Source: a virus
Taxonomy: Duplodnaviria > Caudoviricetes
IMG/VR virus record: IMGVR_UViG_3300003320_000853
DNA: 64,000 nt
Direction: 5' to 3' (one strand)
The notes beneath the pieces are model-generated. The model searched no databases. It saw only the letters and a program-made list of their open reading frames with translations, and was not told where the DNA came from. Positions 33,364-54,091 of the stretch are shown here, piece after piece. Position numbers and translations under genes: made by a program. Position 1 is the first letter of the stretch, and each line of letters starts with the position of its first letter.

Positions 33364-33366
33364 CGA

Positions 33367-37740: not shown

Positions 37741-37754
37741 TCGGGTGACCCGAA

Positions 37755-38477
37755 GTGGCGATCGACTACTGGCGCCTCGCAAATGACTTCGAGGTAGGAG
37801 GGACCGTCCAGCGGTTCGTTCCCGGCCTCGGGGGTCTTTCTCTGTCCCCGTTCCTTGGTCGTGTGACGGCCGTCCACAAGGGGCTCGGGGTGGTCGACGT
37901 CCAGTGGCCGTACGGCAACGAGCGGATGTTCCCGGATGATGTCGTTCGCGTCGACCCTCGGCTTGGGGTCTATCTCCCGCCGACGCTCGATCAGATGTAC
38001 TCCTCCTACGACACACAGAAGCAGGCCAAGACGGCAAACCGGGGCCAGTGGCGGACCATCGAGGTGCCGCCCGAGTTCCACCGGGAGCTGGCGCGTCTTT
38101 ACGCCAAGAAGGCGTCGGACGTGCTCGCCTACGACGAGTTGTGGAAGCGGTACGCCTCGACGGTCTCCGACGACATCCTCCGGGCCGAAGTGAAGCGGTT
38201 CTACAAGGTGGCCTCGAACCTGGTCGAGCTCCGGGTCCAACAGCACGCAGCGAAGACGGCGGCCTATTGGGTCGCGCAGAACCGGCAGTACCGGGTCACG
38301 GCGGAGGAGCATCAGAGCAAGAAGCCCTTCTGCCCTCGATGCGGCAAGGTGATGCGGAAGACGACCTACAAGATGGACAAGGGGGCGAAGCATCGTCTCT
38401 TCGCCTGTCCCAAGGATCTCTTCCTCATTCAACAGGAGCACCTTCTCGGTCCGGGCGGCGAGCCCGTGGAGTGGTGA
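37755..38477 (+). CDS. Hypothetical protein with C-terminal zinc ribbon
   Basis: CPRC...CPKD. Confidence 0.75.
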   Translation: MAIDYWRLANDFEVGGTVQRFVPGLGGLSLSPFLGRVTAVHKGLGVVDVQWPYGNERMFPDDVVRVDPRLGVYLPPTLDQMYSSYDTQKQAKTANRGQWRTIEVPPEFHRELARLYAKKASDVLAYDELWKRYASTVSDDILRAEVKRFYKVASNLVELRVQQHAAKTAAYWVAQNRQYRVTAEEHQSKKPFCPRCGKVMRKTTYKMDKGAKHRLFACPKDLFLIQQEHLLGPGGEPVEW

Positions 38478-38480
38478 GCC

Positions 38481-38819
38481 ATGGATCTCGTTGCTCGCGT
38501 TGTTGCCCGATATCAGGGAGTCAAGGTTGCGGGGAAGTACCATTCCGTGATGGTCGACCTGGTATCGCGGATCGATGACTTGAGAGATCCTGACAAGATC
38601 AAGCAAGATCGAGAGCGTGTTCTCAAGCTCGGGGAGATGATTTCCGCCGATGAGGAATGGCACGCGTCCCCGGCGGCACAGGGATTGGCAGCGCATGCTG
38701 TCGTTCAGAGGACGGAGGATCTGGCCGAGGCGCTCTATGAGCTGGCGTTCGTAACCCGGCGGGTGCAAGAATCGTACGACGACATGAATGAAACCTTCCT
38801 CCGGCTCGGGTTGAAGTAA
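38481..38819 (+). CDS. Hypothetical protein with N-terminal LxxRVxxRY motif
   Basis: MDLVARVVARY. Confidence 0.7.
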   Translation: MDLVARVVARYQGVKVAGKYHSVMVDLVSRIDDLRDPDKIKQDRERVLKLGEMISADEEWHASPAAQGLAAHAVVQRTEDLAEALYELAFVTRRVQESYDDMNETFLRLGLK

Positions 38820-38821
38820 TC

Positions 38822-40276
38822 ATGGCCTTTCTCCGGTACGCTTACGCGAAGACCATTCAGCCGGATATCAAGGTCGCCGGGTGGGAAGAGATCCGCCGTG
38901 CGGGCAACCCTTTCGTGGAACGGGCGGCTGCCAAGGTCGTCTTCACGGAATTCAGCCCGAACGACTACATGCTCTCGCACTGCACGATCATCGCGTCGGT
39001 CGACGCGGAGCCGGGCAATGCGCCCCTTGGAAAGAGCGTCGTCGACGGCTTCCAGATCAACCGGAAGTACCCCGATTGGCTCGTCACCCAGAAGACGGCC
39101 AAGTACATCAACAACAACAACGACGCCTGGGAGAGGAAGCTCCTCCTCTCGTGCTTCCGCACTTTCATCGGTGGCGAGAACTACGTCGAGCACATTCAGA
39201 TCCCAGAATTCAGCCGTGGGAAGATCATCGACGCGGCGGCTCGGGACATCGGGGACTCGATCTACGTCGACATCCTCGTGGCGACCCATCGGAAGCATCA
39301 GCCCCTCATCGCGTCGATCACGAGCGGAGCCCTACAGACTCTCTCGATGGGCTGCCAGGTCGAATTCACGATCTGCACGAAGTGTGGGAACGTCGCCTAC
39401 GACGAGACGCAGCTCTGCCCCCACGTGCGGTTCGCCAAGGGCACCCCGTGGAAAGATGCGGCCGGCAATGAGCGCATCGTCGCCGAGCTATGCGGCCACA
39501 TCGAGGAGGAGCCCGGGAGCGTCAAGTTCATCGAGGCGTCGTGGGTGGGCAACCCCGCTTTCACGGGAGCGGTTCTTCGCAACATCCTGAACCCCCGGGA
39601 GGCGGCGATCCACGAGGCCAAGCTCAAGAGCGCTCTCGCCGAGATGCCTCGCGTTCCGAATCTCGACCTCTTCCAGAAGGCGGCCTACCAGCTCAAGATC
39701 AGCCAGTACGGGGATCAGGGGGATCAGGGGAGCGATCCCGCGCCGAAGAAGAAGCCGGAGAAGAGTCCCTTCGATTCGGCCGTCGACGATCTCGCGGATC
39801 ATCTCCGAGAGAAGGCGGTCGAGAAGGTTCGGGGGGAGATCCACAAGGACGAGTCCCCGCTTCGAGACGAGAACCAGAACGACACCCTGATCAAGTCCGC
39901 GCTCCGAAATCCCGTCTGGAGGGAGATGGCCCGAGCTGTCATCGCGACCGTGGGTACGGGCAAGCCGGCGCGCAAGACACTTCTGGGGCTCATCCTCCTC
40001 AAGACTGGGGGATGGGAGGCCGTGCGATCCGCGAAACTCCTCACGGGGCGCGAGATCCTCGCTCTTTCCCGCATGATCGACCTCGCCCACAAGCGCACGA
40101 TCATGGCCGGAGAAGGGCGCATTTATCGAACTATTGTCGCGGTTGGCGGGACGTCCCCATACCGCGACGAAGCGCACTACATGGCGGCGTGCCGTCGTGT
40201 CTTGGGTAGGGATCCTACTCAAGACGAGAAGAGGGTCCTCCTCGTCAAGGGGCAGCTCTTCTCGTTCGGTGCATGA
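38822..40276 (+). CDS. Prohead (capsid maturation) protease, HK97/herpes-like fold with Cys insert
   Basis: NNNDAW, YVEH, GKIIDA, LSMGC, CTKC..CPH, FIEASWVGNPAF; upstream of scaffold and MCP. Confidence 0.8.
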   Translation: MAFLRYAYAKTIQPDIKVAGWEEIRRAGNPFVERAAAKVVFTEFSPNDYMLSHCTIIASVDAEPGNAPLGKSVVDGFQINRKYPDWLVTQKTAKYINNNNDAWERKLLLSCFRTFIGGENYVEHIQIPEFSRGKIIDAAARDIGDSIYVDILVATHRKHQPLIASITSGALQTLSMGCQVEFTICTKCGNVAYDETQLCPHVRFAKGTPWKDAAGNERIVAELCGHIEEEPGSVKFIEASWVGNPAFTGAVLRNILNPREAAIHEAKLKSALAEMPRVPNLDLFQKAAYQLKISQYGDQGDQGSDPAPKKKPEKSPFDSAVDDLADHLREKAVEKVRGEIHKDESPLRDENQNDTLIKSALRNPVWREMARAVIATVGTGKPARKTLLGLILLKTGGWEAVRSAKLLTGREILALSRMIDLAHKRTIMAGEGRIYRTIVAVGGTSPYRDEAHYMAACRRVLGRDPTQDEKRVLLVKGQLFSFGA

Positions 40277-40351
40277 TTCTGTTTATATTCCGTCAGCCTA
40301 CGTAAATCGACGTCATCACGTCGATCGGAGGCTGCCCGAGAGGGGTCGAAC

Positions 40352-41722
40352 ATGCGCGCACGCACCACTTGGAACCGCGAGCAGATCAGGCAGGCTTCGG
40401 CGGGCAGGACCGCCGAGGATCCTCGGGCTATGAACCAGGATCACCTTTCGCAGCAACCGCGGGCGGATGCGTATGTGAACGGTGATCCTTCGTCCTGGGC
40501 CGAGGACGTCCGCAAGCCGAACACGTGGGACGTCGAGTACAGCGGCGGCGCCACCAAGCGTGACGAGATCGGCATGCCGGAGAAGCGCCCCGAGACCTAC
40601 AACCACCCGGAGAAGACGGCTGCCATGGAGGAGATGCGACTGTCCAAGAAGGCCGAGTTCACGTGCAAGCTCGCCAAGCTCATGCTCGGTTCGGGCGCCA
40701 CGGAGACCGCGGTCGAGGATCAGGCCGTGTCCCTCATGCACATGCCGGACGAGGCCCTCATCACGACGTACAACACCCTGAGCGAGAAGCTCGCCGATCA
40801 GTCGCAGTTCCCCGGGGGTCAGTACCCGACCGCGGAGCAGCAACAGCAGTCGGCTCAGCAGCAAGTCGCCATGTACCAGCAACAGGCGCAGCAAGCGCTT
40901 CAGTCTGGTGACTTCGAGCAGGCCAAGCAGGCCCTCGAACAGTGCATGGCGGCTCAGCAGGGTCAGCAGGGCCAGGGTCAGCAACAGGTGATGGCCGGGC
41001 AGAAGAGGGCCGATGGGACAGTGGCTCCGGCCCCCGCGACTCCGGCTCCGGCTCCGGCAGCTTCCACTTCGGCGCCCGCGGCTCCGGCCGTGGCGGCCCC
41101 CGCTCCGTCGACGACTCCCGACATCAACGCGATCGTCCAGACGGCGGTCCAGGCGGCCCTCAAGCAGGCCGGGGTGCTTCGGGCCGACGATCAGCAGCAA
41201 CAGCAGGGGCAGCAGCAGCAGGGGCAGGGCCAGGGTCAGCAGCAACAGGCCAGCCAGCAACAGGGGCAGCCGCAGGGTCAGGGCCAGATGCAGCAGCAGA
41301 GCCAGCAACAGGCTCAGATGCAGCAGCAGGCCGACGATGCCCTCCTCGACGAGCTGATGATGGGCCAGGGCCAGGGCGGGATGTCGGAGGCCGACATCGA
41401 GCTGGAGGCTCCCCCGATGGACACCGGCGAGGTCGTGCTCGGTCCGGAGGACGACGTCCTCCAGACGCTCTTCGCCAACGAGGAGACCCAGGCCGCCGAG
41501 CAGGCTCAGCAGGGCCAGGGCGACCAGGGCCAGAAGCAGGCGGGCATGGGTCGCACGGCTTCGACCCGTACCGTGGGCACGCGTCCCACGGGTGGTGTCG
41601 CGAAGGTCGGCGGTGCCTCCGGGGCCGCGGGCCAGCCCACCCGCGGTGGCAGTGACATCGACAAGCTCGCGGCCCTCTGGCCTTCGGCTCCCGATGTCCG
41701 CGGTGCCTTCAATATGACCTAG
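40352..41722 (+). CDS. Probable scaffolding protein (Gln/Ala-rich)
   Basis: Low-complexity poly-Q/PA tracts, located between protease and capsid genes. Confidence 0.6.
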   Translation: MRARTTWNREQIRQASAGRTAEDPRAMNQDHLSQQPRADAYVNGDPSSWAEDVRKPNTWDVEYSGGATKRDEIGMPEKRPETYNHPEKTAAMEEMRLSKKAEFTCKLAKLMLGSGATETAVEDQAVSLMHMPDEALITTYNTLSEKLADQSQFPGGQYPTAEQQQQSAQQQVAMYQQQAQQALQSGDFEQAKQALEQCMAAQQGQQGQGQQQVMAGQKRADGTVAPAPATPAPAPAASTSAPAAPAVAAPAPSTTPDINAIVQTAVQAALKQAGVLRADDQQQQQGQQQQGQGQGQQQQASQQQGQPQGQGQMQQQSQQQAQMQQQADDALLDELMMGQGQGGMSEADIELEAPPMDTGEVVLGPEDDVLQTLFANEETQAAEQAQQGQGDQGQKQAGMGRTASTRTVGTRPTGGVAKVGGASGAAGQPTRGGSDIDKLAALWPSAPDVRGAFNMT

Positions 41723-41807
41723 TCCCTCCGGGACATGCGCCTTTCGAGGCGGGATCGAATCGCATCAAACACCCGAACCAAACCAACGTGCCCAGGAGCA
41801 AACATAG

Positions 41808-42443
41808 ATGACTTCCTACGCCATTGGTGGACAGAGCTCGGGTGACTTCAAGGAGACCTCTGCGCGCGTCCAGCTTCTCAACGTCGTCACCCGGAATTCC
41901 CAGGGTGTCCTGACGCCGGACGCGTTCTCGCAGGCGAATCCCCCCGTCGTCACCGGCCAGAAGTCCTCCACCCTGAACGCCATCGGCGGCAAGCTCGGCG
42001 TCCTCGGGGGCAGCATCGCCTTCACCCGATACGACTTCGGCAACGGCTTCCATGGGGGGCCGCTCAAGGTCGGTGGCAACTACGACGCTCGGGTGAAGCC
42101 TCTCGGCTTCTTCCTGAACGACTCGCTCGGGAACGCCTTCGAGAACACCCCCGGTGTCGCTTCGACGCGCGGTCCGTACGTGTGCGGCGTGGGTTCCACC
42201 GTCGGCCTCTCGATCTACGAGACGAAGAAGCAGGTCGCGACGAATCCCGGTGACGCGATCACCTGGACGGCGGGCGATCCGGTCTACGCCTCGGTCAACG
42301 GCTACGCCACGAACGTCGTCGGTGACGCTTACGAGTTCAACGTCTCGGGGCAGAACGACGTGAAGTTCGTGACCCTCATGGGCATCGTGAAGGTCGCCCC
42401 CGACGCCAATTCGTCGCTCCTCGTGATCGACACCCGGATCTGA
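41808..42443 (+). CDS. Head decoration/cement protein
   Basis: Immediately upstream of MCP; KPLGFF, GDPVYASVNGY, GIVKVAP; SD AGGAG. Confidence 0.65.
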   Translation: MTSYAIGGQSSGDFKETSARVQLLNVVTRNSQGVLTPDAFSQANPPVVTGQKSSTLNAIGGKLGVLGGSIAFTRYDFGNGFHGGPLKVGGNYDARVKPLGFFLNDSLGNAFENTPGVASTRGPYVCGVGSTVGLSIYETKKQVATNPGDAITWTAGDPVYASVNGYATNVVGDAYEFNVSGQNDVKFVTLMGIVKVAPDANSSLLVIDTRI

Positions 42444-42462
42444 GAGAGGAGCAGAGGACACC

Positions 42463-43344
42463 ATGAATCAGCAGGTTTCCAACGAGCTGAAGCAGCAAAT
42501 CATCAGCGAGTACATCAAGACGGCTTCCGGCCGAGCGAAGCTCGCTGCGTCGATGATCCAGCCGCTCCGGCTGCGTCGCGACTACACCGCGGTGGGTCGC
42601 AAGACCTTCCTCGTGGAGCAGCTCCCGGACGGCGCGCTCCCGATCTACGACAAGGATCCGGACGTCACGGCATTCGTCGTCGGCGAGGAGGGCCAGAACA
42701 TCCTCGCGATCCAGAAGCCGCGCCGCGTGATCTTCCCCCTGTTCGAGATCGCCTCGAACCCGGAAATCCCGCTCACTCAGATCAAGGAGCGTCGCTTCGA
42801 TCTCATCGAGCGCGCTCAGGATCTCGCCAAGGCGCAGATCCAGGCTGCGGAGGACGAGCGGGTCTTCACCGTCCTCGACTCGATCGCCGTCTCGGGCTTC
42901 GACACCCTCCCCGGGCAGACGAACCCCGACGTCGCCGTGGTCGCCCCGATCTCGCCGGCCGTCCTCGCGGACGCCTTCGCGGAGATCGAGCGCCACGACC
43001 TCCGGGTCGCGCGCATCTACATGAACGCCGTGGACTATGCGGACATCCGCAAGTTCGGGCGTGACATCCTGGACATCGAGAGCCAGGCGACCCTCCTCAA
43101 GACCGGCCTCCAGGCCGTTCTGTGGGGTGCGCAGATCATCACGAGCCGCCTCGTCCCCGTCGGCTTCGTCTACATCTGCGCCGAGCCCGAGAACTTCGGC
43201 CGCTTCCCGGTCCGCACCGAGCTCACGGTGCTCTCGGCCGACGACCCGAAGGCCCGCACCATCGGCTTCTCGTGCTTCCAAAATGTCGGCATTGGGGCAT
43301 TCAACCCCAAGGCGCTGACGAGGGTCGTGGTTCAGCGCTTCTAG
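42463..43344 (+). CDS. Major capsid protein (HK97 fold)
   Basis: LAASMIQPLR..RDY...RK...VEQLPDG, AQIQAAED, IYMN, LWGAQII, VGIGAFNP; strongest codon bias; followed by a terminator. Confidence 0.88.
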   Translation: MNQQVSNELKQQIISEYIKTASGRAKLAASMIQPLRLRRDYTAVGRKTFLVEQLPDGALPIYDKDPDVTAFVVGEEGQNILAIQKPRRVIFPLFEIASNPEIPLTQIKERRFDLIERAQDLAKAQIQAAEDERVFTVLDSIAVSGFDTLPGQTNPDVAVVAPISPAVLADAFAEIERHDLRVARIYMNAVDYADIRKFGRDILDIESQATLLKTGLQAVLWGAQIITSRLVPVGFVYICAEPENFGRFPVRTELTVLSADDPKARTIGFSCFQNVGIGAFNPKALTRVVVQRF

Positions 43345-43380
43345 CCTGAATCCGGCCTGAAATCAGGCCCAAAGGCGATG

Positions 43381-43420
43381 GAGGCCCTGCTCGGGAAACC
43401 GGGTGGGGCCTCTCGTTTTT
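43381..43420 (+). terminator. Rho-independent terminator after MCP
   Basis: GAGGCCCTGCTCGG-GAAA-CCGGGTGGGGCCTC followed by TCGTTTTT. Confidence 0.85.
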
Positions 43421-43504
43421 AGTGCTTGTAAAGAAGATGGGCCGTCCCGCCATGGCGAGACGGTGTAGATGACGGTAGCTGATAGTCTTTGCATCGGAGA
43501 ATGT

Positions 43505-43699
43505 ATGGGTGAGATCACGATCGGATCGAAGGTCAGATTGAAGAGTGGGATCGGGCCAACGATGATCGCAGACGGAGAGTCTGCTGGGGGCCCGGGCGAA
43601 GCCATCTCCTTGATGGCTTGCTACTGGTTCACGTCGGACATGACGTACCAGAGGGCGGACTTCCGGCTCGACCATCTGGAGAAAGATCCCAACCCCTGA
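43505..43699 (+). CDS. YodC/DUF2158-like small protein
   Basis: IGSKVRLKSG.GPTM...CYWF. Confidence 0.7.
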   Translation: MGEITIGSKVRLKSGIGPTMIADGESAGGPGEAISLMACYWFTSDMTYQRADFRLDHLEKDPNP

Positions 43700-43717
43700 C
43701 CAGGGGTTCTGAACGGC

Positions 43718-43757
43718 AAGGGGCCGTCTCCGAGAGGGGTCGGCCCCTTCGCTTTTT
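43718..43757 (+). terminator. Rho-independent terminator
   Basis: AAGGGGCCG...CGGCCCCTT stem followed by CGCTTTTT. Confidence 0.8.
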
Positions 43758-43802
43758 GTCTGTTTGACCCCCACATGTGTGGATGAGCCGGTAGACTTCC
43801 TC

Positions 43803-44699
43803 ATGAAGTGGGCACGCTTCCCTTCGCTTCCGAGAATGTTTCACGTGCCCGAGAGCGTGAGGGATACCAAGCCGCTCACTCCTCCTGGCACCGACCTATC
43901 CATCTGGCAATGGGATGATGAGCGGGGGCGTCCGACCGCCATCGTCTTCCAGGGGGATTCAAACAAGCCTTTGTGGAAGTACACCTTCGGAAACGAGGCC
44001 CAGCGTCATCATGAGATCGTCGAGGCCGCTCGGATCCGCAAAGAGCAGCTCAAGGAGGAAACGATGACCCTCAACGATCGGGTCTTGGCGCGGTTCAAGC
44101 AGTCTCTCGACCTTGGGAAGACGTTCTTCACCGAGAGCCTCAAGTTCCACCACTGGCGCGGGCACCTCACCATCACGGACATCACGAACGCCGGGAAGCG
44201 GGGGAAGAAGGTTCGCGAGCTGGTGGTGACGCCGAACACACGGGGTGGGGACGCCCGAGCCGAGGAGGTGATCAAGCACCTCGTTCCGACGCTCACGCAC
44301 ATGAACTACGACCAGGCGAAGGGCAAGATGGAAGACCTTCAGGAGGAACTCGACGACAACGGCAAGCCCGTCGTCGAGCTCTTCGAGAGGATCCTCCGTG
44401 GGGTCGACGTCGAGCCTCCCGGCACGAAGATCGAGCTGACCAACAAGTTCGAGAATGGGACCATCCTGCGCATCGAGTCGAGCCCCCACGACTTCCATCT
44501 CACGAACAGCGCTCTGTTCGGCGCCGCTGGGGAGAAGCCGTCCTTCCGTCAGGACACCGGCTACTGGCCTCGGTCGAAGAAGGACGGCATCCTGTTCTAT
44601 GCCTGGCTCAAGGAAAACATGGCCAAGGCGTCCAAAATGACGATCCAGGACTTCCAGAAGGTCTGGGATCAGCTCGGCGTCACGTACAACCAGCACTGA
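43803..44699 (+). CDS. Hypothetical protein; strong internal start at 44064 (MTLNDRVLARF)
   Basis: AAGGAGG SD before 44064. Confidence 0.7.
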   Translation: MKWARFPSLPRMFHVPESVRDTKPLTPPGTDLSIWQWDDERGRPTAIVFQGDSNKPLWKYTFGNEAQRHHEIVEAARIRKEQLKEETMTLNDRVLARFKQSLDLGKTFFTESLKFHHWRGHLTITDITNAGKRGKKVRELVVTPNTRGGDARAEEVIKHLVPTLTHMNYDQAKGKMEDLQEELDDNGKPVVELFERILRGVDVEPPGTKIELTNKFENGTILRIESSPHDFHLTNSALFGAAGEKPSFRQDTGYWPRSKKDGILFYAWLKENMAKASKMTIQDFQKVWDQLGVTYNQH

Positions 44700-44719
44700 C
44701 GTCGGTGTAGACTTCGGGC

Positions 44720-45055
44720 ATGCCCCTGACCGAAGAAGCTCAAGCGCTGATCGAGCGATCCCTCCAAACCCGAGAGGGTCAGGTTGCACTCATGGTTGCC
44801 ATGGGGGACGCGATCCAACGGTTTGTGGACTGGGGGAACGTAATGCCCGGGACGCGGCGGGATCTAGAAATCACCCGCGCCCGCCTTGAGGCCCGTCGTG
44901 TCGATGTGATGGGCTTCGGGGTGTGGCGCCACGGGCGCACCCTCGGCCAGCTTTTCGAGGCCATGAGACTTTTGAAGGCGCCGCCGATCGGACCCTGCTT
45001 CATCGAGCCCGCGCCGACCGCCTGGGAACATCTCCTGGCAGATGACCCGGTTTGA
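44720..45055 (+). CDS. Small protein resembling the MCP N-terminus, with PTAWEHLLADDPV tail
   Basis: Preceded by CGGTGTAG; by-eye alignment to MCP residues 7-41. Confidence 0.65.
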   Translation: MPLTEEAQALIERSLQTREGQVALMVAMGDAIQRFVDWGNVMPGTRRDLEITRARLEARRVDVMGFGVWRHGRTLGQLFEAMRLLKAPPIGPCFIEPAPTAWEHLLADDPV

Positions 45056-45457
45056 CTATCGGAACATCCCGGGCGGCGTCCGGATCCCGGCCTTCCGCAG
45101 GATCTCTTCGCACCATGTGAGCGCCTCGGAGCGCTGGTCGAACGCCTTCACGTTCGTCGGCATCGGCGCCACCATGAGGAGCGTGGAGAGCACGAAGCGT
45201 ACGACGGCGCCGTCGACTACGACGGCGTTTCCGAGCCACGTGTTCCGCAACTCCGGCATCATCTTGATCCCATCAGAAAAGGGGGCGACGATTGCCCGAG
45301 GGGATGCCTTCAGCCGCGACGCATCCGTGAGCACCACGAAGACTCCCGACCGAGATGCCTGCCTGAACCCCTCGAAGAGAGGAGGGAGGTCGACGGGGCC
45401 GATCTCCTCGGGGAGATCCAGGGTCATAAGTGGGTGAGTGAGGGTGATTGTAATCAT
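45056..45457 (-). CDS. STAS/SEC14-like small protein of the type abundant in myxobacteria
   Basis: VVLTDAS...AVVVDGAVVRFVLS.L....P......F....EAL.W pattern; ATGA-coupled to the terpene synthase. Confidence 0.7.
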   Translation of the reverse strand: MITITLTHPLMTLDLPEEIGPVDLPPLFEGFRQASRSGVFVVLTDASRLKASPRAIVAPFSDGIKMMPELRNTWLGNAVVVDGAVVRFVLSTLLMVAPMPTNVKAFDQRSEALTWCEEILRKAGIRTPPGMFR

Positions 45458-46494
45458 GTCCTGTCCGTGAACCTAGGTTCGATGACGCGGTTGTTCACGA
45501 CCACCTTGTAGGCCGTGTATCGCGGGGATTGCGCCTCCCAGAGGGAGAACCCAAGGGACGCGTAACGGACATCCTGCAACCACCGGGCGATGAAAGGATC
45601 GTCGCGCTCCGACCAGGATCCCAAGGATCCGGCGAGGCGATCGAATTCCAGGAGCGTGGTGTTGTGGGTGAGGATAAGGTACTCGAAGGCATCCTCCACG
45701 CTCATCGCACGTTCGTGCATGAGCGTGGAGGTCAGGTTGAGGTGGCCCTCGGTGAAGTCCTTGCCAAAGCTCAGAAGATCGTTGCCGATCCCGACGATCT
45801 TGTTGGACAGAGTCTTGAGCCGCATGACCGTAGGGTGGAGGTGGAAGGAACGCGGAAGCTCGAAGTCATACACGTCTTCGAGCAAGTAGACGGTTGCGTA
45901 CATCCCGATGGTCGCGATCCTGAGATCCATCTGCCGCGTGAAGCTCGGGAACACCTTGTTCTCCTGAGCATTCCTCACCGCGAGGGCTTCCTGACGTGCG
46001 GCCGTGCTCCACGTCTCCATGCACTGGCAGACGGCCCGAAGCCACAGCTCGCTCCTCCCCCCAGAGAACTCCTTGAGGAGCTGCCACCAACCGAGATCGA
46101 AACGAGACATGTCCTTCGGAGGCTCGGCCTTGAGGATATCGCTGGGGTCGATCCTCCAACGATTGTCCCGGCTTTCTACCTCAACGTCGTCCCACAGGAG
46201 CCACAGGGTGAGATGTTTTGCGACCCGGATGGTCTTGTCGAGAGGCAGTGTGGGGAACGGAAAGCCTACATAGCCCTCGATGTCGAACCGACGGGCACGG
46301 GTCAGTTCCTCGGGTGTACACCCGAGGGTCTCCAACCACTGGAGCACGTGACGCCTCGCCTGGATGGCGAGGGGATTCTTCGGGATCGGCGATCTCCAGT
46401 GCGGTGGCACACGGAACACGAACTTCTCGCCCGTATTTGTAGGGTAGCCCCTAGCGGCGTCCGCGGAGACGACAAGGAAATCGCTTTCGGTCAT
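45454..46494 (-). CDS. Class I (bacterial-type) terpene synthase/cyclase
   Basis: Asp-rich WDDVEVE, pyrophosphate-sensor R in LRIATIG, NSE-like NDLLSFGKD, HLN, WEAQSPRY; SD GGAGG. Confidence 0.88.
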   Translation of the reverse strand: MTESDFLVVSADAARGYPTNTGEKFVFRVPPHWRSPIPKNPLAIQARRHVLQWLETLGCTPEELTRARRFDIEGYVGFPFPTLPLDKTIRVAKHLTLWLLWDDVEVESRDNRWRIDPSDILKAEPPKDMSRFDLGWWQLLKEFSGGRSELWLRAVCQCMETWSTAARQEALAVRNAQENKVFPSFTRQMDLRIATIGMYATVYLLEDVYDFELPRSFHLHPTVMRLKTLSNKIVGIGNDLLSFGKDFTEGHLNLTSTLMHERAMSVEDAFEYLILTHNTTLLEFDRLAGSLGSWSERDDPFIARWLQDVRYASLGFSLWEAQSPRYTAYKVVVNNRVIEPRFTDRT

Positions 46495-46524
46495 GACCCC
46501 TCCATCCTGGTGTAGGAACACCAG

Positions 46525-47190
46525 ATGCACGCCTCATGGAAGAGGGTCCTCCAAGATGAATTTCGATCCCCATCCTTCCAGGATCTCATCAAGTTCGTCG
46601 AGAGAGAGCGTTCCACCTACACGGTTTTTCCTCCTGTGGGTGAGGTCTTCACCGCGTTCGACCTAACGCCATTCGAGGATGTCAAGGTCGTCATCCTCGG
46701 TCAGGACCCCTATCATGGGGTCGGGCAGGCGCATGGTCTGAGCTTCTCCGTCAAGCCCGGCGTCTTGCTACCGCCCTCCCTCGTCAACATCTTCACGGAG
46801 GCCCGGTCTGATGGGGTTCTGACCGGCACGCCTGGGGGATGCCTCAAGCCGTGGGCTGAGCAGGGGGTCTTCCTCCTGAACTCGGTGCTCACGGTTCGAT
46901 CAGGGGTGGCGGGATCCCATCAGTACCGTGGGTGGGAGGCGTTCACGAACGCCGTCATCCGGAAGCTCTCCGAGCGGGAGAAGCCGATGGTCTTCATCCT
47001 GTGGGGGAGCTATGCGAGGGACAAGAAGCCTCTCATCGATCTCGACCGGCACACGGTCATCGAGTCGGCTCACCCGTCCCCTATGTCGGCCGACCGGGGA
47101 TTCTTCGAGAGCAGGCCATTCTCCAGGGCCAATGCAGCCTTGGTCGCCGCGGGACAGACGCCGATCGACTGGCAGCTCCCTCTGGTCTAA
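46525..47190 (+). CDS. ung: Uracil-DNA glycosylase family 1
   Basis: VVILGQDPYHG, AHGLSFS, PPSL.NI, LLNSVLTV, HPSP. Confidence 0.97.
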   Translation: MHASWKRVLQDEFRSPSFQDLIKFVERERSTYTVFPPVGEVFTAFDLTPFEDVKVVILGQDPYHGVGQAHGLSFSVKPGVLLPPSLVNIFTEARSDGVLTGTPGGCLKPWAEQGVFLLNSVLTVRSGVAGSHQYRGWEAFTNAVIRKLSEREKPMVFILWGSYARDKKPLIDLDRHTVIESAHPSPMSADRGFFESRPFSRANAALVAAGQTPIDWQLPLV

Positions 47191-47465
47191 TCGAGACCGA
47201 AGGAGAGCTGCTCATCCTCTTCCACGGCGGGCTCGCCCTTCTTCCCCTTGCCCTTCTTGAACTTGGGCGCCTTCCGGCGTTGTTCCTCGAAGAATGCTTG
47301 GAAGAGGGTCTTCCACTGGTCGCGGGGGATCCCGACCTTGACCACAGCGAAGACCGAGATCCGCCAGGCGCGGGGAACGGCGCGGGCGACCTCCCGGCCG
47401 AGCTCGGCTGGATCGGTCACCCCGTCGTCGATCTTCTTCTGGAGGAGGGTGGGGAGGTTGTCCAC
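47187..47465 (-). CDS. Small basic protein with C-terminal clamp-binding-like motif
   Basis: Lys-rich patch then EQLSFGLD. Confidence 0.6.
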   Translation of the reverse strand: MDNLPTLLQKKIDDGVTDPAELGREVARAVPRAWRISVFAVVKVGIPRDQWKTLFQAFFEEQRRKAPKFKKGKGKKGEPAVEEDEQLSFGLD

Positions 47466-47467
47466 GA

Positions 47468-47665
47468 TCAGTACCCAGTGCGACGCCAGATGTGGCCGCC
47501 ACGAACCGTGGCAACGAGGAGCTCGCCGACGTAGACGTTGACCTGATCCCAGTCGTCCGAAGCGCGGACCGCGTTGACGATCGCCTGGTCGATGTTCTGC
47601 GGGGTGTGGTCGAAGTTGTAGGAGCGGTTGCCGAGGAGGCCGGTGGTCCAGATCGTCGTGCTCAT
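47468..47665 (-). CDS. Hypothetical protein
   Basis: SD AGGAGGAG. Confidence 0.7.
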   Translation of the reverse strand: MSTTIWTTGLLGNRSYNFDHTPQNIDQAIVNAVRASDDWDQVNVYVGELLVATVRGGHIWRRTGY

Positions 47666-47682
47666 GCTCCTCCTACAGAGGA

Positions 47683-47716
47683 GAGGGCCGAGCGATCAAC
47701 TCGGCCCTCCGTTTTT
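47683..47716 (+). terminator. Hairpin with plus-strand U-tract between minus-strand genes
   Basis: GAGGGCCGAG-CGATCAA-CTCGGCCCTC-CGTTTTT. Confidence 0.6.
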
Positions 47717-48052
47717 CTAGCGGCCGGTGATCTTCTCGAACCCGTTGGCGCTTTTCATGGCGAGGGCGAGCGCCTGAGCGTAGGCCGCGAGCTTGGCCAC
47801 GACCTCGTCATGACGGCGGAGGACGCGCGACCAGTCCTCACGGCATTCCGCCGATGCCTCGTAGATGCCAGGGTTGTCCTGGCGGGAGAAGCGCTGGAAG
47901 TGCGCCGTCTTGTCGTCGGTGGCGGCGGCCAGCTCCAAGAGAAGAGCCATCGCCTCGTCGTGCGTCCATGGCACCGAATTGAGCGAACGGACCTCGCCAC
48001 CGAGGCGATCGAGAAGGATGCGGATATCGGACAGGGTCTTCTGGGGATCCAT
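47717..48052 (-). CDS. Hypothetical protein
   Basis: Preceded on the minus strand by CCGTGTAG and AAGGA. Confidence 0.7.
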   Translation of the reverse strand: MDPQKTLSDIRILLDRLGGEVRSLNSVPWTHDEAMALLLELAAATDDKTAHFQRFSRQDNPGIYEASAECREDWSRVLRRHDEVVAKLAAYAQALALAMKSANGFEKITGR

Positions 48053-48146
48053 GGGTCCTTCTACACGGAACCCGGCACCTTGATCAACCTAACTCACTTA
48101 TCCGTTTGCTCTCTGTGGAGACCTTTGTCCCGCGCAGGAGCAGACG

Positions 48147-49406
48147 ATGCCTCAGCAAGATCAGATCCGATACCAGCACGGCCAGCCCATCCACTTCATC
48201 ACGACCAGGAACTTCACGTTCGGCAACACGCCGAACGGCCAGCCTCTCGCTCTGTCGAAGGGCACCGATGTCTTCTTCGACGGGACCACGGCGGAGGTTG
48301 CCGGGGCGCGGTACGCGATCCCGCAGCTCCGGGGGGCCATTCGCACGGGGTGGCTCGTCCAGGCACAGCGGTACGACGAGAACGACACCTCGGCGGAGCG
48401 GCCGAGGGCGGCGGGCATCGAGGTTCGGCATGCGGCGGAGGGAGGCAATCCTCTCCGGCCGAACCGGGTTCGATTCGAGCGTGCGACGGAGGAGGACATC
48501 GACGAGCGTGAGGTGGGCAACGTCGACAGCCATGCGGCGTCGACGAGGGCTCGGAACACCCGGTGGCGGCCCGGCCAGCGTCCGCCCGCGGATGTGGAGC
48601 CCGGGCGTCGCTTCACCGGCTCCGTGTGGGAGGTCGAGGCCCAGGATGGGGTCGAGGTGCGGCGGGGCTTCGCCACGGCGCGTTCGGCGGGTGAGGATGC
48701 TCGGAGCATCCCGACTACGCAGCTCAGCCGGGCGGGTGAGGCCATCGCTCGGGCGAACAACGTTCAGATCGAGCCGGGGGAAGGCATCACCGAGGAGGAG
48801 ATGCTGGAGAGGATGCACCCGGAGGATCGCGAGCTGTACCTCGCCGACAAGGAGGCGTACCGTTCTCGGTACGCCGACGTGGCCCCGGCTCCTCGGGTGA
48901 TGCGAGCCGATCCTTCGGCGAACCGCGTCATCGCTCGGGTCGCAAACCACGGGGCCGAGACCCGGGAGGGGATGACGAGCCGGGTCACGACGGGTGGGGG
49001 GACAGAGGTCTTCGACGTTTCGGGGCTTGATTCGGCGCCGGCTCGGCAGGACACCATCAGCCAGGAGGGTCTCACCTTCCGGACCACGAACGGTCCGCAG
49101 CGGGCATTCGAGAAGCCTTCCAGCCCCGACGACAAGAGGGTCGCTCCGGCCGAGGTCGTCCGCACCGTGGGGCAGTCTGTCACCATGCGTGAGGCTCCGG
49201 CCGAGATCCGCAAGATGGTCGCCAAGACCGTGTGCGCGGACTTCCCCGACAACTATGATTTCTCGGGCTCTGTGCGGAAGCGGCTCGCCCGTCTCCAGGC
49301 GGACTTCGAGGATCGCCACGACGTTCTCCGTGCCGTCTTCGCGGCTGAGGGCGACGAGATGAAGTCGCTCCTCGTCGCCGAGTTCCCGCAAGCTTTCGCG
49401 CAGTGA
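48147..49406 (+). CDS. Hypothetical protein (late region)
   Basis: SD AGGAG; long ORF with coding bias. Confidence 0.75.
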   Translation: MPQQDQIRYQHGQPIHFITTRNFTFGNTPNGQPLALSKGTDVFFDGTTAEVAGARYAIPQLRGAIRTGWLVQAQRYDENDTSAERPRAAGIEVRHAAEGGNPLRPNRVRFERATEEDIDEREVGNVDSHAASTRARNTRWRPGQRPPADVEPGRRFTGSVWEVEAQDGVEVRRGFATARSAGEDARSIPTTQLSRAGEAIARANNVQIEPGEGITEEEMLERMHPEDRELYLADKEAYRSRYADVAPAPRVMRADPSANRVIARVANHGAETREGMTSRVTTGGGTEVFDVSGLDSAPARQDTISQEGLTFRTTNGPQRAFEKPSSPDDKRVAPAEVVRTVGQSVTMREAPAEIRKMVAKTVCADFPDNYDFSGSVRKRLARLQADFEDRHDVLRAVFAAEGDEMKSLLVAEFPQAFAQ

Positions 49407-49452
49407 ATCTCGCCCCATAGCTGAGGATCTCCTTTTGCTGGCCCTTCCGGTG

Positions 49453-50589
49453 ATGGGCGAGACGGAGATCGGCGATGGGTGCGTGCGAGCTTCCCAACAG
49501 GAGAAGCAAGCCTCCGGCATCGTCGTGTACCTCATGGAGGAGCTGGGGGACGCCCGCCTCCGGACAGCCCAGCTCAAGAAGTACATTCAAGAAGCTCTCG
49601 ATCTCGTCGAGAAGTCTCCGGAGCGGGACAGGATCTTCGAGATCGCTGGCCACCTCCTCCACGGCATTCCCGACACCGCCTTCAAGCTCGACAAGGCTCT
49701 CGACGCGGCGGCGATGGCGGCGGCTCGTCTCGACTACGAGGAGATCAAGCAGAACCTCAAGCCCGAGAAGGCCGACGAACTTGAGGACGTCTTGAATGAC
49801 GTCCGGCTCAACATTCTCAAGAGGCGTTCGAACATGGAATCTACGGTCACAGCCGAGCATCGGTCAGGCAAGGTCGCTGCGCTTCTCAAGCTTGCCTTCC
49901 TCATGGGGCAACATGAGAGCAAGTCTCCACCCTCGAAGCACGTTACTTCGGACGACTTGCAGGGATTCGCGGAAGAATCCTGCCAGGTCGTTGCCCAGAA
50001 ACTTCAGTTGTTGGCGGGCATGATCAAGAGGGGGTCCCCAAACATCGAGGGTCTTCTCGGAGACATTGGGGGACACCTTGAGACGGGCCTGTGGTTCTAC
50101 GGCCAATCCTTGGCGGAGAAGCCTACGGGATCCATGACAGCGGAACAGCACAGAGGAACGACCATGAAGAGCGCGAAGGAAGCTGCGGCGGAGTTGGTTC
50201 AGCTTGCCGAGATCACGGAGGCCACGGGGCAGGTTCCGCTCGTCCGTCTCGCCAAGCTCATCCGGGCCCTGGAGGGGCCCCAGGCCCGCACGGCTTCGGA
50301 CGTCCCGAAGAACGCGGCTTCCTTCTTCCGGAACGTCGCGACGGCGATCCAGAAGGAGGCCAACCCGAGCCGTCTCCGGCTCGCGAACGTCCTCCGCAAG
50401 GTCTTCGCAGACGGGATGCAGATGGACGCTGGCACCATGCTCGCGGCCATCTACGCCCAGGCGAACTCGCGCGAGGACGTCATCAAGGGGTTCATGAGCG
50501 CCAATCCCAGCATGTCGAAGGAGGACGCCGAGAAGGCGGCCGACATGTGGGAGAAGCACAAGGACGTCGTCAAGGACAAGCACCAGTAG
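49453..50589 (+). CDS. Hypothetical helical protein; possible internal start at 50164
   Basis: Coding bias; AGAGGA before MKSAKEAA. Confidence 0.7.
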   Translation: MGETEIGDGCVRASQQEKQASGIVVYLMEELGDARLRTAQLKKYIQEALDLVEKSPERDRIFEIAGHLLHGIPDTAFKLDKALDAAAMAAARLDYEEIKQNLKPEKADELEDVLNDVRLNILKRRSNMESTVTAEHRSGKVAALLKLAFLMGQHESKSPPSKHVTSDDLQGFAEESCQVVAQKLQLLAGMIKRGSPNIEGLLGDIGGHLETGLWFYGQSLAEKPTGSMTAEQHRGTTMKSAKEAAAELVQLAEITEATGQVPLVRLAKLIRALEGPQARTASDVPKNAASFFRNVATAIQKEANPSRLRLANVLRKVFADGMQMDAGTMLAAIYAQANSREDVIKGFMSANPSMSKEDAEKAADMWEKHKDVVKDKHQ

Positions 50590-50595
50590 GGCACC

Positions 50596-50853
50596 ATGGC
50601 TACAACACTTGTCGATCGAGTTGTCCGTCGATTTCTTCAGGGGAATACGTCGAAGGTCAGTCGTATGACCCTCCCCCAGGTCTACAACAACCTGAAGATC
50701 ATCTACGACTACGAAGAGGGCAAGACCAAATCTCGGCCGGGGGCTGAGCAACTCGTCAACGACGCCATCAAGCGTCTGGAAGATGAGGGGATCGACGTCT
50801 CGGGAGCCCTTCGGACCATGACCAAGGGGCCTCGGGGATGGATCGACATGTGA
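50596..50853 (+). CDS. Hypothetical protein with LxxRVxxRF motif
   Basis: MATTLVDRVVRRF. Confidence 0.7.
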   Translation: MATTLVDRVVRRFLQGNTSKVSRMTLPQVYNNLKIIYDYEEGKTKSRPGAEQLVNDAIKRLEDEGIDVSGALRTMTKGPRGWIDM

Positions 50854-51191
50854 ATCTCGCCGACCGCGTCCTCCACAGGTACAAAAGCGCGGCGAACAAG
50901 GCGCTCACGGATGCGGAGTATCAAAAGACCGCCACCGACGTGCTCGCGGCGATCAAGCGGATCGGAGAGGACACCAGTACGGTTCGGGAGGGTGTCGTCA
51001 ACATGGCGCTCACGCTCAAAGATCGAGGTCACTTCCGTGATGCCTCGACTTTGATGGAGATGGCTCCGGACATGAGCGGCGTGCCCGAGCATCTATCGGC
51101 CATGGTCGAGCGTCTCAAGAAGGTCCCCGCCGACATGCGCAAGTCCCCGAAGCCCGGGCCGAAACCGAACCCCTGGACGAAGCCCCTCTAG
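50850..51191 (+). CDS. Hypothetical protein with LxxRVxxRY motif
   Basis: GTGA coupling; (M)NLADRVLHRY. Confidence 0.7.
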   Translation: MNLADRVLHRYKSAANKALTDAEYQKTATDVLAAIKRIGEDTSTVREGVVNMALTLKDRGHFRDASTLMEMAPDMSGVPEHLSAMVERLKKVPADMRKSPKPGPKPNPWTKPL

Positions 51192-51195
51192 CGCC

Positions 51196-52017
51196 GTGAT
51201 TCAGCCTCTCGTGAGTCGACCTCCCTACGGACAAGGGCATCCCGCCATGCCCACAGGAGAGGCCAAGCTCCCTTCCGGAGACCCGGCGAAGCGGGGCCTT
51301 CCGCTCGACAATTCTATCCCCGGCGACTCGACGTACAACAAGCCGGAGCAGGATGAGCGGAACCCGGACAAGGGGCATGACGAGTCCATCTACCGGGTCG
51401 ACGACGCGGACGATCTACAGAAGACCGATCAGGGGGGCAAGGACAACCGGGAGGAGAATTCGGACAAGCATGACGGGCTCGGTTGGAGCGGCGGTGGGAA
51501 GCAAGATGCTTCCCCGAAAACGCCCTACCCCTATCGGGACGGCGTTCCCAACGCCCACAACGCCGCGCATGTGGTGGGACTCTTCCTCCTCGCGTCCTCG
51601 CCCGAACGGATCCTGACGGCGGCTCGGATTGGGGAGATCGAGAAGAACCTATCGAAGATCACCCAGGATCGGGCCCGTCGGTGCAAGGTCACCCTGAAGC
51701 GAGCCGACATCGGCAACCTCCGATGGATCTTCGCGGTGGACAGTGGGAGCGGCCCGAAGCTCGTCCGACTCAAGGCGGCGCGGCCGAGCCGGGTGGTCAA
51801 GCTGACGAAGATGGACCTCCGGTTCTCCTGCTCTTGTCCTGCATGGCGTTGGCAGGGCCCCGAATTCCACGCGAAGCAAGACGGCTTTCTCGATGGTTCG
51901 CCTCGCGGGACGGCATCTACGCCAGACATCACCGACCCGGGACGCGAGAACCGGGTCTGCAAGCACGTCGCCGCAGTTCTCGACTTCGTTCGCGGGTGGG
52001 AAGTACCCGCGGCATGA
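51196..52017 (+). CDS. SWIM zinc-finger protein
   Basis: FSCSCPAW...VCKHVAAV. Confidence 0.75.
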   Translation: MIQPLVSRPPYGQGHPAMPTGEAKLPSGDPAKRGLPLDNSIPGDSTYNKPEQDERNPDKGHDESIYRVDDADDLQKTDQGGKDNREENSDKHDGLGWSGGGKQDASPKTPYPYRDGVPNAHNAAHVVGLFLLASSPERILTAARIGEIEKNLSKITQDRARRCKVTLKRADIGNLRWIFAVDSGSGPKLVRLKAARPSRVVKLTKMDLRFSCSCPAWRWQGPEFHAKQDGFLDGSPRGTASTPDITDPGRENRVCKHVAAVLDFVRGWEVPAA

Positions 52018-52036
52018 CATAGGAGATCGAATTCAA

Positions 52037-52447
52037 ATGCCTACGTACACGACCCTTTGCCAGGGATGCCAAACCGAGAGCACCGTTCGTCTTTCTTTCG
52101 CCGACTACGACAGCGTGAGGCTCGGCGCGAAGATCCTCGAATGCGGCACGTGCCAGGCGGGCGTCAAGATCGTCTTCAATCCTGGGGACATCAACTTCGT
52201 CCTCAAGGATGGGGAGAGCGGCGGGTGGGCCGGCAAGGCCATCAAGGAGAACAAGCTCCGCGCTCGCCGGAGGGAGATCCTCGCGAAGAGGGAGCGCGAC
52301 CACGTGTTCAAGAACAAGCTCCAACCCAACGTCGCGGGGATGGAGACCGGCACGTGGAAGGAGGCTCAGGCGTTCGTCAAGTCGGAGGTCGGAGAGGCGG
52401 CGGCGAAGACGTATGAACCCCTTGTGGCCCAGGAGAAGACAGGATGA
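52037..52447 (+). CDS. FmdB-like zinc-ribbon protein
   Basis: MPTY...CQGC...CGTC...FVLK.G..GW; SD AGGAG. Confidence 0.7.
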   Translation: MPTYTTLCQGCQTESTVRLSFADYDSVRLGAKILECGTCQAGVKIVFNPGDINFVLKDGESGGWAGKAIKENKLRARRREILAKRERDHVFKNKLQPNVAGMETGTWKEAQAFVKSEVGEAAAKTYEPLVAQEKTG

Positions 52448-53085
52448 AGCGCACGTTCTCCGTCATTCGTCGGCGGCCACACCTGGTCGATGTGATCATG
52501 CCCCTCACCTCTGGGGTGCAGACCTATCGGCTCAAGTGGGCGGCCAACTTCGACGCCGGGAGCTACACGCAATTCCTCGACTCGGGGAACCAGGGGTACC
52601 TCGATCCCTCGATCGACCCTGGGGTTGTGGGTGCGCAGCCGACATCTTCCCGCCAGGTGCGGGTCGTCTTCGATCCCACGACCTTCAGCATTCCGGACAC
52701 GTCGCCGTTTTGGCTCCAATTCTGGACGGTTCCGTTCGGTGGGAGCGAGGCGCAGCAATCGGCCGGCGGCCTCATCCTTCCCGATTCCGACAACCACGGC
52801 ACGGGGATCATCACGATCCATGGCAACGCGCCGAACGCGGCGAGCGTGGCGGGTTCCCTCCAGATCGATCTCCCTCGGATGATGCAGGACATCCGGGTCC
52901 ACAACGAAGACAGCACGAATTCTCTCTTCGTCGCCACGGACGAGGGGGGAGCTGAGTCCAAACTCCCCCCCGACACATTCCCGCAGTTCGCGAATCTCCA
53001 GGGCACGCACGCGAGTCTGTGGGTTCGGGGGGGTGGGGGAGCCGTTGCCTTCTCGGCGACCTTTACGCAGTCGTTCCCTCGGTAG
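52444..53085 (+). CDS. Hypothetical beta-rich virion protein
   Basis: Coupled start; composition. Confidence 0.65.
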   Translation: MKRTFSVIRRRPHLVDVIMPLTSGVQTYRLKWAANFDAGSYTQFLDSGNQGYLDPSIDPGVVGAQPTSSRQVRVVFDPTTFSIPDTSPFWLQFWTVPFGGSEAQQSAGGLILPDSDNHGTGIITIHGNAPNAASVAGSLQIDLPRMMQDIRVHNEDSTNSLFVATDEGGAESKLPPDTFPQFANLQGTHASLWVRGGGGAVAFSATFTQSFPR

Positions 53086-53121
53086 CTCTTTTATCGCCAT
53101 GGAGAGCCAGGAGCCCATCGC

Positions 53122-54084
53122 ATGCTTCGTCTCATTCACAATCAGACGGTTCTCGGAGCCATCCTCGTCGACGACATCGACGACGGATTGCCCAACAAGC
53201 AGGTTCACCGTCTCGGGAGCACGGCCGACCCGAAGGCATACAAGCGGGACGGCTATGCGAACGAGCCGAAACAGCCCTGCTACGTGCCCTACACGGTCAT
53301 CGGGAACGCTGCCGTGGCGGGGTACATCGACCTCAACGAGACGCAACGCGTGCTCCTCTCCGAGGGGAAGGGGAAAATCTCGAAGCTCGTCCAGGCTGGG
53401 CTTCTCTCGAAGCTCAACTTCGCGGCGGGTGCGACCGCTGCCCCTGCCATCACGAACGCTCAGTCCAACACCCCGAGCTTGGGGGCGGTTACCCTCACGG
53501 GCACCGGCTTCACCTCGACGTCGCCGAACGTCTCTTCGGTGAAGCTCACGGGCACGGGGGCGGTGACTCTCACGCAATCCCAGATCACGGGGGCTGGCGG
53601 AACGTTCTCGTCGACGTCGATCGTCATCCCGTCCTCGCTCATCCCGAATGTCGTGGCGGCGACCGGCACGATCACGGCGGTGTCCGGAGCGAACCTCAAC
53701 GATGGGGAGACGTTCACCCTCAATGACGGGGTGAACTCCGCGACGGTCTTCGAGTTCGACTCTGGCGGCGGTGTCACCGGCGGCCACGTCGCGGTGCCTT
53801 TCACCAGCGGGGACTCTGCGGCGACTGTCGCAGCCTCGATCATCACGGCGATCAACGGGGTTGCTGGGAGTCTTGCCATCACGGCTTCCCCGGGGACCGG
53901 AGCCGTGGTCAACCTCACGAACGACGCGCTCGGCTCGGCTGGCGACCACGCGATCACGAAGACGGTCGCGAACTCCGGCTTCATCGTCACGGGCATGTCC
54001 GGTGGTGGGGGCGCCGTGGCGACGGCGACGAGTGCTCAGGTCATCGCCAACGCTCAGACCTCGAACGTCTTCGCCTTGGTCTGA
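53122..54084 (+). CDS. Virion surface protein with IPT/Ig-like domain and inserted module
   Basis: PAIT...VTLTGTGF...TSIVIP...SN; Thr/Gly/Ala-rich; SD AGGAG. Confidence 0.65.
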   Translation: MLRLIHNQTVLGAILVDDIDDGLPNKQVHRLGSTADPKAYKRDGYANEPKQPCYVPYTVIGNAAVAGYIDLNETQRVLLSEGKGKISKLVQAGLLSKLNFAAGATAAPAITNAQSNTPSLGAVTLTGTGFTSTSPNVSSVKLTGTGAVTLTQSQITGAGGTFSSTSIVIPSSLIPNVVAATGTITAVSGANLNDGETFTLNDGVNSATVFEFDSGGGVTGGHVAVPFTSGDSAATVAASIITAINGVAGSLAITASPGTGAVVNLTNDALGSAGDHAITKTVANSGFIVTGMSGGGGAVATATSAQVIANAQTSNVFALV

Positions 54085-54091
54085 TCGTGAC

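Follow-up and report, generated by a model that had tools for sequence, protein, structure and literature searches.

A two-gene unit encoding a class I terpene cyclase and a small protein of the SpoIIAA/STAS fold is present in a 64,000-nucleotide stretch of DNA (the window in the following) from the Caudoviricetes record IMGVR_UViG_3300003320_000853, where it lies among the genes of a huge phage. The same two genes, in the same order and with the same junction, form an operon in Myxococcota, the only other group in which we came across the pair. We consider it likely that the phage took over this complete operon from a lineage of Myxococcota and that purifying selection has since maintained it as accessory cargo, which would divert host prenyl diphosphate to a terpenoid. 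The unit was first noticed in a reading of the sequence made without database searches, referred to here as the original prediction. The enzyme is of a known kind and belongs to an uncharacterised subfamily with a dedicated partner; its setting, a bacteriophage, is one for which we found no precedent.

The product of the first gene (TS) scored 78.9 bits against the Pfam profile PF19086 (Terpene_syn_C_2), for which the cut-off is 23.7, and is therefore far beyond chance as a terpene synthase. An AlphaFold2 model of the protein, with a predicted local distance difference test (pLDDT) score of 92.4 and a predicted template modeling score (pTM) of 0.91, showed the all-alpha fold of class I terpenoid cyclases, with extra short beta-strands at both termini. 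Foldseek matched the model to many solved cyclases, with 1-epi-cubenol, 10-epi-cubebol and T-muurolol synthases at the top (E 3e-12, template modeling (TM) score 0.7–0.8), and a profile of the family recovered solved sesquiterpene cyclases from the PDB at E values of about 1e-19. On this evidence, gene 1 is predicted to encode a functional class I terpene cyclase.

All the class I motifs named in the original prediction (WDDVEVE, a sensor Arg, NDLLSFGKD and WxxxxxRY) are present (Table 1). In the family alignment, D102, D103 and E107 of the Asp-rich motif are invariant across all 16 sequences; N238, K245 and D246 of the NSE-type triad and W319 of the C-terminal RY motif are likewise invariant, and D239, S242, R325 and Y326 are at least 90% conserved. 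The protein thus has both the sensor Arg and the C-terminal RY pair. Its motifs are also in register with those of the active 10-epi-cubebol synthase 7zrn: DDxxxE aligns with DDVCE, the triad with NDIYSLRKE and PRY with PRY. Variants of the form DDxx(x)D/E are active in other enzymes, and the 46-residue spacing between the sensor Arg and the NSE triad is the rule for bacterial terpene synthases. The last ligand of the triad is Asp instead of Glu in every family member, and D246 plausibly binds Mg2+ despite this change. The original prediction was thus right that DDxxD and the terminal Glu appear in variant form, but the departures are family-wide and are shared by the cellular members, rather than being specific to the phage. 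Because D102, D103, E107 and D246 are invariant throughout the family, the DDxxxE form and the terminal Asp belong to the family as such and do not point to decay of the phage gene.

The near structural neighbors of TS are all farnesyl diphosphate cyclases, with a few diterpene synthases lower in the list, and the substrate is most likely farnesyl diphosphate, giving a C15 sesquiterpene. The best NCBIfam equivalogs reached about 50 bits against cut-offs of 400–680, and no characterised member of the subfamily appeared in the libraries searched; as TS has no close relative among characterised enzymes, its substrate and product can be read only loosely. Compared with NcECS (9hqb), ScCubS of Sorangium (7zrn) and T-muurolol synthase (9hqd), the phage protein shares the single alpha-domain fold, the register of the motifs and a length of ~340 residues, but it is only about 20% identical to them, has DDxxxE and a triad ending in Asp, is accompanied by a STAS-fold partner and is encoded by a phage.

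The two genes are on the minus strand, whereas almost all other genes in the window are on the plus strand. As originally described, they overlap by an ATGA stop/start junction, which reads GACAGGACATGATTACA, and both open reading frames (ORFs) share the GC3-rich codon pattern (GC3, GC content at third codon positions) of the real genes in the window. The TS and uracil-DNA glycosylase (UDG) genes are divergent, and most of the 30-bp gap separating their start codons is occupied by an imperfect palindrome, which may have a regulatory role as an operator or as a 5'-UTR hairpin. The idea that this palindrome is a repeated motif was rejected, since GGTGT-N4-ACACC has a single exact occurrence in the window, namely the palindrome itself.

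Table 1. Coordinates of the two-gene unit, its motifs and flanking signals, the surrounding phage genes, and related ORFs at other loci (positions refer to the window unless a locus is named).
Feature	Position	Strand	Details
Class I terpene cyclase gene (TS), 346 aa (P0001)	45454..46494	-	ATG 46494-46492; stop TGA 45454-45456
Partner gene, 133 aa (P0103), SpoIIAA/STAS fold	45056..45457	-	ORF and model
ATGA stop/start overlap from TS to partner, 4 bases, translational coupling	45454..45457	-	Sequence of junction in text
Asp-rich metal-binding motif D102-D103-V-E-V-E107 (DDxxxE form)	46174..46191	-	W101 precedes; family alignment
R192, putative diphosphate-sensor Arg	45919..45921	-	46 residues before N238; invariant in family alignment
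NSE-type triad N238-D-L-L-S242-F-G-K245-D246, terminal Asp replacing Glu	45757..45783	-	Family alignment
C-terminal RY motif W319-x5-R325-Y326	45517..45540	-	Family alignment
Shine-Dalgarno sequence GGAGGGG, 5' of TS ATG	46497..46503	-	GGAGG at 46503-46499; sequence
Imperfect 18-bp palindrome CTGGTGTAGGAACACCAG	46507..46524	.	Perfect 7-bp arms, 4-base center; sequence
Large terminase	27272-29290		
Portal	31534-33363		
Head maturation protease	38822-40276		
Major head protein	42463..43344	+	phrog_2522, 177 bits
Hypervariable accessory-gene slot, from head-protein gene to conserved gene at 48147	43345..48146	.	Comparison of related loci
Convergent neighbor, 111 aa, C-terminal PTAWEHLLADDPV	44720..45055	+	Abuts partner stop, no gap
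Divergent neighbor, UDG	46525..47190	+	PF03167, 54 bits; phrog_12143, 190 bits
HMGR-cyclase (HMGR, HMG-CoA reductase) fusions	L009:1744-4071; L010:1273-4083; L012:1810-4071		L009 = 775-aa ORF, no internal stop
Distant cyclase-like ORFs	L003:9833-11470; L004:10001-11398		314-kb and 847-kb contigs, one sample

The nearest relatives of TS are cellular, with a best identity of 62%, and 24 of 24 close genomic relatives are from Myxococcota. They come from Minicystis, Vitiosangium, Byssovorax, Enhygromyxa, Polyangium, Archangiaceae and Myxococcaceae, the sole others being distant sequences from Dyella. When a maximum-likelihood tree was rooted on Dyella, the phage cyclase branched inside the Myxococcota radiation. 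Relatives of the partner are 46–56% identical to it, several of them coming from records whose longest contig is as long as that of a cyclase homologue, and its orthologues are found directly downstream of TS homologues in cells. At six cellular loci (L002, L005 from Minicystis, L007 from Byssovorax, L008, L011 and L018), the partner gene is directly 3' of the cyclase gene, and five of these six operons (L002, L005, L007, L011 and L018) have the ATGA junction. Because the cellular operon has the same genes, order and junction, the pair was most likely captured by the phage as a unit.

Set against the Myxococcota operon, as represented by Minicystis rosea (CP016211.1, ~1.136–1.138 Mb), a Byssovorax metagenome-assembled genome (MAG) and Phaselicystis flava (A0A3S5GYH8 / A0A3S7V0B...), the phage unit agrees in genes, order, ATGA overlap and invariant residues, but its two genes are 38–50% diverged and of lower GC, and its cyclase has no FFPP...PPSSRR tail. 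The suggestion in the original prediction that this is a captured host operon is therefore the best-supported account of its origin; that the capture was recent did not hold up, since the best identities are 62% for the cyclase and 56% for the partner and the GC content matches that of the phage. In a groundwater Myxococcota MAG (JACRCW010000065.1), two cyclase–partner operons (L008 and L011) are arranged in tandem about 7 kb apart, one with an ATGA junction and the other with a 41-nt gap.

The association between the partner and the cyclase is close. In Minicystis there is a single partner orthologue (197 bits), located at the cyclase, and four genomes that have a cyclase without an adjacent partner have no partner orthologue anywhere. 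Because orthologues occur only next to the cyclase, the partner is a dedicated accessory of one cyclase subclade, while being dispensable in the family as a whole. In a sister clade (Myxococcaceae/Archangiaceae), the cyclase is instead part of an in-frame fusion with an entire HMG-CoA reductase (PF00368, 342–356 bits), and these fusions lend independent support to a role of the cyclase family in isoprenoid metabolism. A literature search for HMGR–cyclase fusions in myxobacteria, or for a link between STAS proteins and terpene synthases, found nothing relevant.

The phage TS ends three residues past the catalytic domain, without a Pro/Ser/Arg-rich C-terminal tail. Most partner-bearing cellular cyclases (L002, L005, L007 and L018; columns 428–495 of alignment A1) have such a tail, consisting of SFFPP... 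followed by one to four PPSSRR-like repeats; the cyclases of the Vitiosangium clade likewise have none.

Despite being ~38% diverged from its nearest relative, TS has kept the conserved columns of its family. When compared with 74 cellular homologues, it retains 36 of 36 invariant columns and 74 of 75 columns that are at least 95% conserved. Since every family-invariant residue is kept, the gene is not decaying. The auxiliary metabolism of phages would come to include terpenoid natural products if a huge phage has an intact cyclase under selection, and the finding also draws attention to an uncharacterised subfamily of Myxococcota cyclases with a dedicated STAS-fold partner and with HMGR fusions in sister clades.

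The window is part of a contig of 376,986 bp (~377 kb), and it encodes a packaging and head module (Table 1) together with a NAD-dependent DNA ligase, a RecD-like helicase and a UvsX-like recombinase. The major head protein is of the phage G type and shares 82% amino acid identity with its counterpart in the uncultured phage LR745208.1 (485 kb), 48% with that in Tunturiibacter phage Tunturi_5 and 39% with that in Bacillus phage G. In IMG/VR, 558 stretches encode this head protein, of which 80 were kept; these are 90–98% identical and come from contigs of up to 529 kb. The head protein relatives and the packaging genes together show that the window belongs to a huge phage of a large, mostly uncultured clade. 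Phage genes flank the unit for 45 kb on one side and 17 kb on the other, as expected for an auxiliary (host-derived) metabolic gene.

A second assembly gave the same arrangement. The Logan assembly of SRR1926113 includes a 19.6-kb contig, of which the 16,873 bases fetched are identical to positions 39622–56494 of the window, spanning both junctions of the unit. The TS gene has a GC content of 0.60 and a GC3 of 0.79, compared with 0.635 ± 0.021 and 0.84 ± 0.04 for phage genes and 0.62–0.70 and 0.72–0.96 for cellular homologues. Given the identical contig, which covers 16.9 kb, and a composition that fits the phage rather than the donors, the unit is not an assembly chimera of host DNA, as the original prediction had cautioned it might be.

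Terpene cyclases appear to be very rare in phages, as originally supposed. When TS, a cyclase from Dyella and a distant cyclase-like protein of viral origin were used in tblastn searches of 50,697 GenBank phage records, no match was found, and no PHROGs family matched TS. The sole significant structural match in BFVD was not to a phage protein, but to a terpenoid synthase from a giant virus, Orpheovirus (E 9.5e-5, TM 0.54–0.65). This protein, from Orpheovirus IHUMI-LCC2, is also virus-encoded and has the same general fold, but it belongs to another virus realm and host domain, is only 16% identical to TS, has no STAS partner and, unlike the phage unit, is not recognisable as a transfer of an operon from its host. 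A scan of IMG/VR, limited to sequence patterns of the TS family, gave only two distant loci (L003 and L004) that are 24–26% identical to TS. The L003 ORF has 545 residues and scores 45.5 bits against PF19086, and the GC content measured in L003 is about 40%; the 314-kb record has a CheckV completeness of 30%, and the phage head protein had no match there. Both loci probably come from giant viruses and not from phages. Among viruses, terpene synthases have so far been reported only from the giant viruses of eukaryotes; such genes are described in PMC13524828, which cites studies by Jung et al. (JACS 2023) and Park et al. (Biochemistry 2025). No reports of a phage terpene synthase were found in the literature searched.

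In the mechanism that we propose, the two-gene operon would have been taken from a Myxococcota lineage into a slot 3' of the major head gene, on the opposite strand. By analogy with the family, D102/D103/E107 and N238/S242/D246 would hold the Mg2+ cluster that ionises a prenyl diphosphate from the host mevalonate pathway, while R192 and R325/Y326 would grip the leaving diphosphate. The carbocation would then cyclise in the alpha-helical pocket to give a cyclic terpene. The partner would be made in step with the cyclase and might help it by attaching either to the enzyme or to the lipid. In an infected cell, the module would channel prenyl diphosphate of the host to a terpenoid specified by the phage. 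The phage may benefit either from the product, as a signal, toxin or membrane agent, or from depletion of the substrate.

Several observations weigh against this reading. The branch leading to the phage cyclase is long (0.59 substitutions per site) and has no resolved sister. The triad ends in Asp and the Asp-rich motif is of the DDxxxE form, and catalysis and chain length are read from relatives of ~20% identity. No promoter-like site was found when the region upstream of the unit was searched. Many cyclases of the family occur without a partner, whose contribution may thus be minor. The partner has also been less well conserved than TS, retaining 33 of 41 invariant columns and 44 of 54 that are at least 95% conserved, with most of the changes being conservative. 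A Myxococcota host is plausible, as judged from gene origin and GC. When positions 27001–47000 were compared as DNA with 401 Myxococcota genomes, no spacer-like exact match was found among the matches listed; the only gene-level matches among these were to the Minicystis cyclase (67%), to UDG (about 70%) and to a repetitive segment at 41.0–41.3 kb.

One alternative is that the product is irrelevant and that the phage uses the cyclase to consume farnesyl or geranylgeranyl diphosphate of the host. Undecaprenyl-phosphate-dependent envelope synthesis or other prenyl functions would then be starved, favoring takeover or lysis or blocking superinfection. The cyclase does look catalytically intact from its residues, and the absence of the Pro/Ser/Arg-rich tail could mean that a localisation or regulatory feature has been lost. 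On the other hand, plain destruction of substrate would not need a partner, and the partner gene is intact and translationally coupled. The sequence does not separate draining from a product-based role, and we regard draining as rather unlikely. The uses proposed in the original prediction, namely phage signalling, control of host development and draining of prenyl diphosphate pools, found no supporting evidence and must be considered speculation.

The unit could also be a neutral passenger, picked up in a recombination hotspot and with no part in infection. The original prediction had placed it inside the virion gene region, and it does lie 1.7 kb 3' of the major head protein gene; the slot itself, however, is hypervariable and contains UDG and small ORFs as well as the unit. 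In related huge-phage loci that show both flanking genes, the head-protein gene and the gene at 48147 are about 0.2 to 7.4 kb apart, with content that differs, and because this distance varies between relatives, we conclude that the unit is in a cargo hotspot. Neither TS nor the partner was found in any of 81 related phage loci (0/81; L033–L113; head protein 82–98% identical; downstream flank of up to 10 kb). That the content differs between nearly all relatives, that none of them has the unit, and that related sequences in IMG/VR were limited to the two distant giant-virus-like loci speaks for a passenger. Against this, the GC and GC3 of TS have shifted to phage values, all 36 invariant residues have survived on the long branch described above, and neither the two reading frames nor the junction that couples them is disrupted. 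This is not the pattern to be expected of a neutral gene, and we consider this explanation improbable.

UDG is also found in some of the related phages, in either orientation and at differing positions in the slot.

The original prediction described the partner as a STAS/SEC14-like protein common in myxobacteria, and this was borne out as regards its fold and its distribution. The AlphaFold2 model (pLDDT 86.8) has an alpha/beta fold of the SpoIIAA type, with Foldseek top matches to 2q3l (DUF3478, SpoIIAA-like), STAS anti-sigma antagonists and RsbS (TM about 0.6, probability 1.0); over 2q3l, 8ih8, 4xs5 and 6jhk, the TM scores were 0.55–0.67. In the ESM Atlas, the partner grouped with small proteins that are commonest in Myxococcota. 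Strict family membership did not follow, since PF11964 scored 18.1 bits, below its cut-off of 25, and DUF7793 also matched below threshold, although some partner orthologues have a precomputed PF11964 match. An exhaustive profile search gave six clusters at 50% identity with E<1e-30, and beyond these a broad fringe of small proteins with weak similarity. The partner thus resembles DUF3478 (2q3l), SpoIIAA, RsbV and RsbS in its fold and in its weak PF11964/DUF7793 signal, but differs from them in falling below the Pfam cut-off, in having no kinase or anti-sigma neighbor and in having orthologues only beside a cyclase. A phosphorylation or anti-sigma partner-switching module was considered and dropped, as there is neither a kinase beside the pair, in the phage or at the cellular locus L002, nor a clear conserved Ser register. 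A prediction of the cyclase–partner complex, run without controls, gave a score of 0.00 and speaks neither for nor against binding. Our best guess is that the partner is a binding protein, either of the cyclase itself or of the hydrophobic substrate or product of that enzyme, and not a switch of the anti-sigma type.

These properties bear on the "make and sense" module put forward in the original prediction, in which the cyclase would make a volatile and the STAS-fold protein would sense it and control phage or host decisions. STAS/SpoIIAA-like domains do act as small sensor or switch modules, and an Atlas cluster of Myxococcota AraC-type regulators, 11% of which have PF11964, matched the partner model, which is a lead only. 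Yet the partner has no output domain, and no kinase, anti-sigma factor or DNA-binding gene is found beside the pair, either in the phage window or at the cellular locus L002. The two genes are moreover translationally coupled, like those for enzyme subunits, and the search gave no longer, fused forms of the partner, although the latter is weak evidence. We found no support for such a module and consider it very improbable.

That the unit is not a phage feature at all, being either a family 2 encapsulin operon with an HK97-fold shell and a cyclase cargo or a misassembly of host and phage DNA, is effectively refuted. In its favor, the best NCBIfam match of TS is to the model for the terpene-cyclase cargo of these encapsulins (NF041167), and a protein of HK97 fold is encoded 1.7 kb away. 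However, TS reached 51.4 bits with this model, whose cut-off is 400, and matched it over the generic C-terminal half only; the HK97-fold neighbor is a phage major head protein (phrog_2522), has 558 huge-phage relatives in IMG/VR and lies in a full packaging module; and the second assembly agrees without difference across the junctions in a region of phage-like composition.

Signals, toxins and volatiles with a formative influence on soil ecology are among the products of terpene synthases. Within the preferred reading, that of a captured and selected operon, we would tentatively raise one further idea, to which we give a low probability: the infected, probably myxobacterial host might release a terpenoid specified by the phage. 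This compound would act outside the infected cell, and the STAS-fold protein would hand off or present the lipid. It could be a signal between infected cells, a suppressor of the social development or sporulation of the host, or a volatile that alters how soil animals or predators treat the colonies. If true, this would be the first small-molecule natural product from a phage-encoded terpene cyclase.

Some minor features of the window remain to be described. No tRNA or tmRNA genes were found by ARAGORN in the 64 kb. The C-terminal tag PTAWEHLLADDPV occurs within the window only on the ORF at 44720–45055 and is absent from the cyclase and the partner; neither of these proteins has the N-terminal RVxxRF tag. 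The repetitive segment at 41000–41340, inside the ORF at 40352–41722, gave many short DNA matches of 70–90%, some of them repeated, in Myxococcota genomes, and looks like a repeat-coding segment rather than a case of homology. A strong terminator-like hairpin of 15 pairs followed by a T-run is found at 43380–43413, directly 3' of the major head protein gene, where it would shield the cargo slot from late read-through transcription.

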